From positions 6,609 to 70,608 of the forward strand of contig JBCAXK010000003.1 in NCBI GenBank assembly GCA_038534095.1: 64,000 nucleotides of DNA. Direction: 5' to 3'. The stretch is from Chlamydiota bacterium. GTDB lineage: Bacteria > Chlamydiota > Chlamydiia > Chlamydiales > SM23-39. The first letter of the stretch is position 1; each line of letters begins with the position of its first letter. Shown one piece after another: positions 23,113-24,249 of this stretch. The notes below the pieces were generated by a model. That model saw only the letters and a list, made by a program, of their open reading frames with translations. It did no database searches and had not been told where the DNA came from. A program made the position numbers and the translations under genes.

Positions 23113-24249
23113 TCAGGAATTTTTTGGAGAAAATCGACTGCGAGCATGTTCTAATATTCTTTTTACAATAGCTGGATCTACAGAAGCTTCTCTGATTCCC
23201 TCTTCAAATGTTCCAGAGATAGTGAGTATATCGCCTCGAGGACACATCGTTATCCAAGTAGAAGTCTCATTAGCTACATTTTCATAGGCCATATAATCTA
23301 AATGACGCACATTTTTAAAGAAGAGTATGTGGCCTCGTATTGGAAGAAATTCTTGATCATTGAATAGTTTTTCTGAACCAAAACTGGTACAATTCACAAT
23401 AATGTTTTCCTCTAAATCCAAGATATCTTGGATATTTTCCAGATGACGTTGTACGATCGATGCGTTTAGCCTTTCAACTTTGTTGAACAGGTCTTTGAAA
23501 AACAGTTGGCGATCTATAGTTAGAATTTTTTTGACTCTGCCTATTTTTCGTAATCCATTATCAAATTGGACGGCAACCTTGTTTTTTTCCCCATGAAAGT
23601 TTGACTCAAAGTAGGATAGTTTTTCAGCGCTTTGGTTTTTGAAGCTATAATCGTCAATAAACCCCACCCCTAAAAATTCTGGTTCCTCTGCGGTTGCAAG
23701 TTGTAAATACCGTTCTGTTGATACTTCCAACATCCGCTTGATCACTTGTTTTTTCTCTGAAGATGAGATTCTTTTTAAGGAAGGAGGACTCCATATTCCA
23801 ATAGCGATATCAGAAGTGAGGTTCGGAGAAAATTCGTCAGCATAAATTGTGACATCGTAGCCAAGATTTAATAATTCATAGGCAGTTGATAGGCCGATAA
23901 CTCCAGCGCCAAGGACCGCGATACGATTTGATTGTAGTAAAGAAGGGTTGTTCAAAAAAGCGTTAGAAAGTAGCTCTATTACCCTTTGAGCTCCCCCCCA
24001 ACATAAAGTCAATCCCGATCCGCCATATCCATAATTATGAATGATTGTTTTGTGATCGAAGTGTTCTTCCTCGAGCCTAGGACCAGACTTTCTGTAAGGT
24101 CTAATGCCTACTGTTGCTCCTAAAAAGTATTTTTCGCTCAAATCAGGAGCTTTAAGAATGATTTCTTTTAGAGGAGGTGTTTGTAATGGATTGGCGTCTA
24201 AGGGAAAAGACAATACAAAAAGAAGTGCCATAAGAGAATAACGAAGCAT
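23113..24249 (-). CDS. FAD-dependent oxidoreductase of the D-amino-acid oxidase (DAO) family, apparently circularly permuted, with an N-terminal signal peptide
   Basis: Signal-like MLRYSLMALLFVLSFPLDA. Next comes VGIRPYRK...IIHNYGYGGSGLTLCWGGAQRVIELL, which is normally the C-terminal DAAO motif. The Rossmann start RIAVLGAGVIGLSTAYELLNLGYDVTIYADEFSP follows, then IIVNCTSFGS...LPIRGHILFF. Confidence 0.8.
   Translation of the reverse strand: MLRYSLMALLFVLSFPLDANPLQTPPLKEIILKAPDLSEKYFLGATVGIRPYRKSGPRLEEEHFDHKTIIHNYGYGGSGLTLCWGGAQRVIELLSNAFLNNPSLLQSNRIAVLGAGVIGLSTAYELLNLGYDVTIYADEFSPNLTSDIAIGIWSPPSLKRISSSEKKQVIKRMLEVSTERYLQLATAEEPEFLGVGFIDDYSFKNQSAEKLSYFESNFHGEKNKVAVQFDNGLRKIGRVKKILTIDRQLFFKDLFNKVERLNASIVQRHLENIQDILDLEENIIVNCTSFGSEKLFNDQEFLPIRGHILFFKNVRHLDYMAYENVANETSTWITMCPRGDILTISGTFEEGIREASVDPAIVKRILEHARSRFSPKNS

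Follow-up and report, generated by a model that had tools for sequence, protein, structure and literature searches.

We refer to the whole 64,000-nucleotide stretch of Chlamydiota DNA analysed here as the window. On its minus strand, an intact open reading frame (ORF; 23113..24249, ATG start, 378 codons and a stop) codes for a flavoprotein resembling D-amino-acid oxidase (DAAO). The locus raises the question of whether this chain is circularly permuted, with the C-terminal part of the canonical enzyme read first. The original prediction had claimed such an order, placing the C-terminal part at residues ~45-95 and the N-terminal part from ~105 on. We mapped the two parts to residues 27-98 and 109-378, respectively, and all peptide strings quoted in that prediction were found where it had placed them. 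That the circular permutation is real and inherited we regard as practically certain. NCBI holds a protein 100% identical to the window protein (P0001) under the name "MAG: FAD-dependent oxidoreductase [Chlamydiota bacterium]" (MAG, metagenome-assembled genome; FAD, flavin adenine dinucleotide).

Rotated order of the chain

The Pfam DAO profile (PF01266) matched the protein with E=1.8e-22 (80.8 bits against a gathering threshold of 27.9), and residues 109-373 corresponded to columns 1-297 of the hidden Markov model (HMM). Searched alone, the N-terminal 107 aa matched DAO columns 305-353 (E=1.4e-5). The order departs from the canonical DAAO topology, columns 305-353 preceding columns 1-297 and the family signature (residues 69-87) preceding the GxGxxG motif (114-119). 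When all PDB chains were searched with phmmer, residues 105-312 aligned to chain positions 10-216 of human DDO (6RKF) and residues 43-96 to positions 280-336 of the same chain. Residues 35-94 aligned to human DAAO 268-330, and the Rossmann block to DAAO 2-243. A profile of 35 family members matched DAAO and DDO chains in the PDB (best E 4.5e-35) and the mapping was always rotated, with profile positions 94-337 corresponding to DAAO 2-248 and positions 25-87 to DAAO 267-332.

A de-permuted construct was made in silico by placing residues 99-378 before residues 20-98. With this construct one matching stretch replaced two, covering HMM columns 1-352 of 353 and DDO 10-335 in a single piece. Alignment to PF01266, which had been put forward as a check on the rotated order, was not collinear and became so only after de-permutation. 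De-permuted family members aligned in MAFFT with human DAAO and human DDO were collinear throughout, and the breakpoint fell at about C264/L266 of DAAO. In DAAO this is the end of the helix that leads from the substrate domain back to the FAD domain, just ahead of the Arg283 strand. The human DAAO sequence in this alignment agreed with the segments from the PDB search and with textbook numbering (R283, Y228, Y224, G313). The human DDO sequence was taken from the PDB alignment of the de-permuted construct.

The transplanted "C-terminal" module comprises residues 27-98 (23956..24171, minus strand), equivalent to DAAO ~266-335, and consists of three beta-strands and a long helix, with the carboxylate Arg and the DAAO signature. 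A new linker (residues 99-108; 23926..23955, minus strand) joins the old C-terminus to Rossmann beta1. Its length and sequence vary within the family, and in the AlphaFold model it forms a short helix at 102-106. The spacing between HNYG and GxGxxG ranged from 31 to 49 residues across the family (mode 36) and was 42 in the clade of the window protein. Residues 109-378 (23116..23925, minus strand), equivalent to DAAO 2-264, hold the Rossmann beta-alpha-beta unit (with GAGVIG at 114-119) and the remainder of the FAD domain, together with the substrate/interface domain. The chain ends at the point where DAAO runs on into the Arg283 strand.

In an AlphaFold2 model built with a 35-sequence alignment (mean pLDDT 87.9, pTM 0.85), residues 28-100 formed strands at 28-32, 42-53, 58-64 and 67-73 and a long helix at 76-100, all with pLDDT >90. 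The last three of these strands and the helix correspond to the C-terminal module of DAAO. After this block came the Rossmann beta-alpha-beta unit, at 109-137, and the leader appeared as a detached helix at 2-13 (pLDDT 55-71). In a Foldseek search of the PDB the top 33 matches were all DAAO or DDO (E 6.7e-13 to 6.8e-10), with glycine oxidase, CmiS2 and sarcosine oxidase far behind. Once folded, the protein should have the usual two-domain architecture of a DAAO-like flavoenzyme, only with its termini elsewhere, a three-dimensional equivalence that we infer.

Distribution and origin of the permuted order

More than 120 proteins of similar length matched the window protein at 40-72% identity and at least 90% query coverage. 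The closest of them (55-72% identity) were full-length, and all 34 aligned homologues had the same permuted order. Among 303 collected relatives the order of motifs was permuted in 256 and canonical in 5, and the other 42 fell outside the strict motif regular expressions. When 1.84 billion cluster representatives were searched exhaustively with HMMER, 146 clusters (50% identity) matched at E<=1e-30, nearly all of them single collinear stretches. Databases label proteins of this family "FAD-dependent oxidoreductase" or "D-amino-acid oxidase", without remark.

A taxon scan with one genome per species detected single-segment matches (query ~30-375) in Babeliaceae (Dependentiae, on a 1.3-Mb chromosome), Chlamydiae, gammaproteobacterial MAGs, Verrucomicrobia, Myxococcales, many Phycisphaerales and Burkholderiales. 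The same match was found in Sphingomicrobium, Allosphingosinicella, Brevundimonas and the cultured Bacteroidota Ekhidna lutea DSM 19307. The phyla and groups with the permuted order were Chlamydiota, Dependentiae, Gammaproteobacteria, Verrucomicrobiota, Myxococcota, Planctomycetota, Alphaproteobacteria, Burkholderiales and Bacteroidota. Some of the permuted homologues sit on complete chromosomes, and one is present on the 2.4-Mb chromosome of Aquicella siphonis. The window gene is an ordinary member of a large, apparently undescribed bacterial family of permuted proteins. It is not the unusual case of one intracellular bacterium that it had been taken for, and homologues of the same order, for which a search had been proposed, number at least 256.

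A subfamily at 40-48% identity (L001, L003, L004, L005, L013; P0036) was found in Chlamydiota, Babeliaceae (Dependentiae), A. siphonis and gammaproteobacterial MAGs. These lineages are mostly amoeba-associated intracellular bacteria. This distribution suggests horizontal exchange among them.

Five canonical-order bacterial relatives, all metagenomic representatives (P0200, P0211, P0216, P0217, P0253), were 33-37% identical to the window protein (E ~1e-34 to 1e-31), and a locus in an Opitutae MAG (L026) holds a canonical-order DAAO-like protein. When de-permuted and canonical sequences were placed in one neighbour-joining tree, with human DAAO/DDO as the root, the permuted proteins fell into a single clade whose sister was P0211/P0216. 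No family member was found with the block at both ends, as in a two-block intermediate. We take the permutation to be ancient and inherited, and the simplest route to it would be duplication and fusion of a canonical bacterial DAAO-like gene followed by truncation. One ancient permutation event is the simplest reading; it is not proven, because strict monophyly of the permuted proteins was recovered in only 45 of 100 bootstraps.

A rotated ORF could also result from the mis-assembly or chimeric joining of tandem DAO copies, or the gene could be decaying into a pseudogene, the Tyr-to-Cys change at residue 336 marking loss of function. The sequence does come from a MAG, Cys336 stands in place of a ~94%-conserved Tyr, and a possible transposase-like remnant, not supported by Pfam, lies just downstream (22906..23067). 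However, identical architecture was found in at least 256 independent sequences, complete genomes among them, and the closest relatives are full-length. The ORF is intact and all family-invariant residues are kept in the window protein. When the protein was compared with the whole 64-kb window by tblastn and with itself by BLAST, no second DAO copy or fragment, relic or internal repeat was found. Mis-assembly is excluded, given that at least 256 homologues from many phyla, some of them on complete chromosomes, share this order. Tandem duplication or an assembly artefact was ruled out by the tblastn and self-BLAST searches and by the lack of any member with the block at both ends. The junction of two tandem copies that the original prediction named as its possible undoing was not encountered, the order being shared across phyla and no relic being present in the window. 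Taken with the pseudogene, we consider this explanation very improbable, and an inherited permutation is preferred.

Active site, leader peptide and probable function

Arg50 (codon 24100..24102, minus strand), equivalent to DAAO Arg283 and DDO Arg278, is the clamp for the alpha-carboxylate and was invariant in 35/35 close and 16/16 distant members (51/51). The DAAO-family signature IIHNYGYGGSGLTLCWGGA (residues 69-87; 23989..24045, minus strand) lies ahead of the Rossmann motif and not at the C-terminus. It matches, as a regular expression, the PROSITE-type pattern [LIVM]2-H-[NHA]-Y-G-x-[GSA]2-x-G-x5-G-x-A. Within it H71, N72, Y73, G74, G77 and G79 were invariant or nearly so in the family. 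The conserved positions included G48-x-R50-P51-x-R53, H71-N72-Y73-G74-x-G76-G77 (G77 being DAAO G313) and G79-L80-T81 in the front module. Further on they included GxGxxG (G114/G116/G119), the acidic D138 after beta2, T145/S146, A149/G151 and C287 in NCT(S/G). All PDB sequence matches of the window protein at E<=1e-9 were DAAO or DDO, and the matches of the family profile at E<=1e-18 were DAAO and DDO chains only. The ThiO model (TIGR02352) gave 48.7 bits against a cut-off of 250.8 and the DadA model (NF001933) 25.4 bits against 383. No NCBIfam model captures the permuted family or its canonical-order sister.

The position of DAAO Tyr228 was occupied by S, T or K in the chlamydia-like subfamily and by Tyr in 15/16 of the distant subfamily with twin-arginine translocation (Tat) leaders. 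In 33/35 of the chlamydia-like sequences a Tyr stands two residues past this position, on the same strand face. This is residue 336 of the window protein (codon TGT, 23242..23244, minus strand), on the active-site strand, which aligns with DAAO Ile230 and DDO Tyr225. It is Cys in the window protein and Tyr in 33/35 close members, TGT being one transition from TAT. The window protein also has I150 where 31/35 carry Ala (DAAO A49). C336 or I150 could affect specificity or activity, or could be a variant of the MAG consensus.

Residues 1-19 (MLRYSLMALLFVLSFPLDA; 24193..24249, minus strand) form a putative Sec-type signal peptide with predicted cleavage after A19, and NP follows. In a heuristic analysis this leader had one positive charge (R3), an h-region of ~12 residues with a helix-breaking Pro, and L-D-A at -3 to -1, with a small residue at -1, then N. 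The best 11-residue Kyte-Doolittle window was 2.46 and the 19-residue mean 1.45, too low for a transmembrane anchor. No RR occurs in residues 1-25, and the Tat motif S/T-R-R-x-F-L-K is absent there. This n-h-c architecture fits the earlier description of a cleavable-looking signal without twin arginines. Close homologues had leaders that were unrelated in sequence and equally hydrophobic, ending a few residues ahead of the conserved "VYLKTPDLS" fold start.

Distant permuted members carried classical Tat leaders at the same position, for example SRRRFLTSLALTATAPGIAAA (L007), SRRNFIKKLGAAGFF...SYA (Ekhidna, L012) and TRRAWLSTAALLTAARA (L018). Tat motifs in such members included SRRNFIKK, SRRRFLTS, KRRNFLKS, KRRNFLKSSS and TRRHFLKRS; several members had a subsequent lipobox Cys, and one Verrucomicrobia member had a Sec-lipoprotein leader. 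By count, roughly 155 permuted sequences had a hydrophobic leader without RR and at least 32 a Tat leader (~45 including those under the hydropathy cut-off). Extracytoplasmic location, as predicted from the leaders, is frequent in the permuted family and not universal. In five alphaproteobacterial members (L010, L019, L021, L022, L024) the Tat motif is followed immediately by a lipobox Cys. They are predicted Tat-exported lipoproteins, an uncommon combination.

Tat is the usual export route for FAD enzymes, and its use elsewhere in the family fits a cofactor-loaded enzyme. The positive n-region of the window leader predicts an N-in orientation, and so an enzyme outside the cytoplasm. The exported or membrane-facing location first proposed is strengthened by the Tat leaders, some with a lipobox, of the distant permuted members. 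We consider export of the window protein probable, with the signal presumably cleaved. An argument from the absence of Tat in Chlamydiae was abandoned because TatA/TatC are listed in two Chlamydiae genomes (PMC3827258).

Alternatively, the hydrophobic N-terminus may not be a cleaved signal, and the protein may be cytoplasmic or tethered to the inner membrane by a signal-anchor or amphipathic helix, in the manner of membrane-associated DadA-type dehydrogenases feeding quinones. A leader without RR would fit, since FAD enzymes normally go by Tat, and several family members are leaderless. The h-region of just ~12 residues, its Pro and the small residue at -1 nevertheless speak for a cleaved signal. 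So do the genuine Tat or lipoprotein signals at the same place in distant homologues, and the charge of the n-region predicts that the enzyme lies outside the cytoplasm. An uncleaved leader is therefore improbable in our judgement, and export remains the preferred reading.

We suggest that the gene product is an FAD-dependent amino-acid oxidase or dehydrogenase of DAAO/DDO type with permuted connectivity. Its chain begins with the module that closes the canonical enzyme, three strands and a helix with the carboxylate Arg and the HNYGxGG flavin/substrate loop. The short new linker joins this module to Rossmann beta1, and the chain ends with the helix that precedes the Arg strand in DAAO. Residues 1-19 would act as a Sec-type signal, and the enzyme would then reside in the periplasm or possibly further out. 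An alpha-amino acid would be bound through Arg50 and hydride passed to FAD N5. The products would be reduced flavin and an imino acid, hydrolysed to a 2-oxo acid and NH4+. Either O2, yielding H2O2, or a different acceptor would then return the flavin to its oxidised state. As substrates we consider neutral D-amino acids most probable, for instance D-Ala set free when peptidoglycan is turned over. For a D-amino-acid substrate as such we put the chances at about even. Substrate, acceptor and physiological role are what we infer from homology and context, a periplasmic D-amino-acid oxidase or dehydrogenase being most likely.

Genes and domains found next to some homologues bear on the substrate. 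In one chlamydia-like protein (P0127, L081:116-1879) a signal peptide and a permuted DAO domain precede a D-Ala-D-Ala carboxypeptidase domain (Peptidase_M15_4, E=2.3e-25); the gene that follows (L081:2028-2876) codes for a peptidoglycan endopeptidase with SH3 and NlpC/P60 domains. At another locus (L084, homologue P0088) AhpC/TSA and DsbA genes lie upstream of the DAO gene and a Peptidase_S66 LD-carboxypeptidase gene downstream, with a multicopper oxidase nearby. One homologue adjoins a periplasmic Tsp protease gene. These links (M15, S66, Tsp) fit oxidation of stem-peptide D-Ala, as anecdotal observations compatible with it.

Other arrangements were noted among the relatives. An ADI-superfamily gene ends 23 bp ahead of the DAO start at L085 (P0021). 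The high-GC protein P0251 (1042 aa) has an N-terminal extension of ~720 residues followed by permuted DAO at 727-1039. An M15 motif seen by eye in this extension had no Pfam support and was dropped. P0183 (616 aa) and P0248 (607 aa) combine a permuted DAO-like part with a C-terminal SAM-methyltransferase-like domain, and have "ESTSVRTNG" for GIRPYRKSG, so that the Arg50 motif is degenerate. They may be a neofunctionalised offshoot and are not informative for the window gene.

The same permuted, exported flavoenzyme might instead have a different carboxylate substrate (glycine, sarcosine, a D-2-hydroxy acid, an opine, or an amino acid from peptidoglycan such as meso-DAP or D-Glu), or be a dehydrogenase with a periplasmic acceptor and not O2. 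Identity to DAAO/DDO is only ~20-23%, the residue at DAAO Tyr228 is S/T/K in the chlamydia-like subfamily, and the pocket has further changes (Q53 to S/T, Y55 to L/P, T216 to Y/F). H2O2 made in the periplasm would be costly; AhpC adjoins one homologue and multicopper oxidases lie near two. However, DAAO and DDO were the only PDB proteins matched by the family profile at E<=1e-18, and enzymes of glycine, sarcosine and opines were much weaker structural matches (E>=1e-6). Neither the carboxylate Arg nor the Gly313-equivalent loop varies in the family. The DDO side-chain Arg216 is Tyr322 in the window protein, and its absence argues against acidic substrates and not against neutral D-amino acids. 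We regard another substrate or acceptor as unlikely, while giving it appreciable weight, and prefer an oxidase or dehydrogenase of DAAO/DDO type.

Several observations weigh against a functional, exported, permuted DAAO/DDO-type enzyme of common descent. The active-site Tyr (DAAO Tyr228, DDO Tyr223) is T334 in the window protein, and the Tyr that might compensate for it is Cys336. A Sec leader on an enzyme with non-covalent FAD raises a problem of cofactor loading. The remaining permuted sequences have no leader or are themselves short (among them Aquicella, some gammaproteobacterial MAGs and most Phycisphaerales), hence export is not a universal family trait. Gene neighbourhoods (ORF clustering in 26 loci and Pfam contexts of 8 homologues) revealed no partner shared across phyla, synteny being limited to Phycisphaerales, and the fusion of DAO with M15 in P0127 was a singleton among 5.8 billion proteins. 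Foldseek, a sequential aligner, spanned just 270-294 columns (TMq ~0.54). Such partial coverage is expected if ~80 residues are out of order, and it shows that no solved structure has the permuted connectivity. The low bootstrap value of the permuted clade belongs here as well. Weighing these points, we find a functional, exported, permuted oxidase or dehydrogenase of DAAO/DDO type moderately likely as an explanation of the whole.

The locus and its relation to known systems

A possible Shine-Dalgarno sequence, AAGG (24257..24260, minus strand), can be read 7 nt upstream of the ATG. A scan for promoters and terminators at the DAO gene gave nothing exceeding the shuffled background. A weak sigma-70-like site (24308..24280) was discounted, such sites being no commoner than in shuffled sequence. 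Downstream of the gene are a 163-aa orphan ORF and then genes for pyruvate dehydrogenase E1alpha, E1beta and E2. Upstream, and divergent, are genes for a DnaQ-type exonuclease and an NAD-epimerase-like protein. The former (24679..25374, plus strand) is of the DnaQ/RNase T type with a C-terminal QSregVF_b / ExoX-like_C domain. The 163-aa ORF (22258..22749, minus strand) and another of 549 aa (26564..28213, minus strand) had no Pfam match and are lineage-specific orphans flanking the locus. Immediately past the DAO stop codon lies a 53-aa ORF (22906..23067, minus strand) with the peptide "...SLLHWVLDTTFNEDQSRISKDHSPENISL", which resembles the C-terminal end of ISAs1/IS4-type transposases, though Pfam does not support this. 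With no Pfam match and no other copy within the window, it was rejected as a transposase remnant. GC content was 0.36-0.39 at 16001..18000 and 32001..38000 against a window average of ~0.43, and these stretches may be islands of foreign or fast-evolving DNA.

DAAO is among the most studied flavoenzymes: it is a model for how flavins catalyse, drugs are aimed at it, and industry uses it as a biocatalyst. To our knowledge, few bacterial DAAOs have been characterised. Searches of the PDB, NCBIfam and the literature found no permutant of DAAO or of any flavoenzyme of the GR2 type. Full-text literature searches found no DAAO that is a natural permutant, that is periplasmic or depends on Tat, or that comes from chlamydiae. 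In the one paper found to name DAAO alongside environmental chlamydiae, it was an assay reagent only, and the source and fate of D-Ala in Chlamydiota were described as long debated (PMC3935232). As far as these searches went, the new element is the permuted topology of a DAAO-type flavoenzyme, often combined with predicted export; the DAAO fold and natural permutation as a phenomenon were known.

The permutant means that the FAD- and substrate-binding C-terminal module can come from the other end of the chain. Its new termini lie at the domain crossover and so provide ready evidence on folding order and engineering tolerance. Judging by the Tat and Sec leaders, D-amino acids may be oxidised outside the cytoplasm in many bacteria, a point of interest for the turnover of peptidoglycan, for signalling by D-amino acids and for H2O2 in the periplasm. 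An exported enzyme consuming D-amino acids would be physiologically relevant in Chlamydiota, and the non-RR leader raises a testable question, namely FAD loading after Sec export.

A broader proposal, which we offer tentatively and think rather doubtful as it stands, is that of a phylum-spanning family of extracytoplasmic D-amino-acid oxidases on a permuted DAAO fold, using Tat in most phyla and switched to a Sec-type leader in the amoeba-associated intracellular Chlamydiota and Dependentiae. If true, the family would be without precedent both as a natural permutant among GR2-type flavoenzymes and as a periplasmic DAAO. The switch from Tat to Sec would imply either that FAD is inserted after export or that the protein is secreted onward, to the inclusion or the host. 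D-amino acids from peptidoglycan or host would be the enzyme's targets, for destruction or recycling, and H2O2 would be made outside the cytoplasm.

Among known enzymes, human and pig DAAO (2DU8, 1KIF) and human DDO (6RKF) were the best sequence and structure matches, sharing the Pfam DAO domain, the FAD motifs, the carboxylate Arg and the HNYGxGGxG signature. The window chain differs from them in being rotated at about DAAO residue 265 and is only ~20-23% identical. It has an export signal, whereas the eukaryotic enzymes have peroxisomal or cytosolic targeting. Its subfamily lacks the conserved Tyr228, and the DDO Arg216 is absent. Canonical-order bacterial relatives have block sequences nearly identical to those of the window protein (GIRPYR...HNYGHGGSG), but with the Rossmann motif at residues 2-13, the signature block at the end and no leader. 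ThiO, DadA and sarcosine oxidase share the PF01266 superfamily fold of GR2-type FAD enzymes (Foldseek E 1e-6 to 1e-4) and, unlike the window protein, are canonical in order and cytoplasmic.

Cofactor-containing redox enzymes of the periplasm include Tat-exported flavoenzymes and Sec-exported FAD proteins such as the Shewanella flavocytochrome FccA. The window leader, being non-RR, differs from those of the Tat-exported flavoenzymes, whereas distant permuted members share Tat leaders with them. With such a leader, the protein would have to take up its FAD once Sec had exported it; no FAD exporter or flavin-transfer partner was identified in this analysis. Other natural circular permutants are the cpGTPases (RsgA/YjeQ), permuted DNA methyltransferases and swaposins. 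They represent the same phenomenon as the permuted DAAO-like family, an identical fold with relocated termini that is inherited family-wide.

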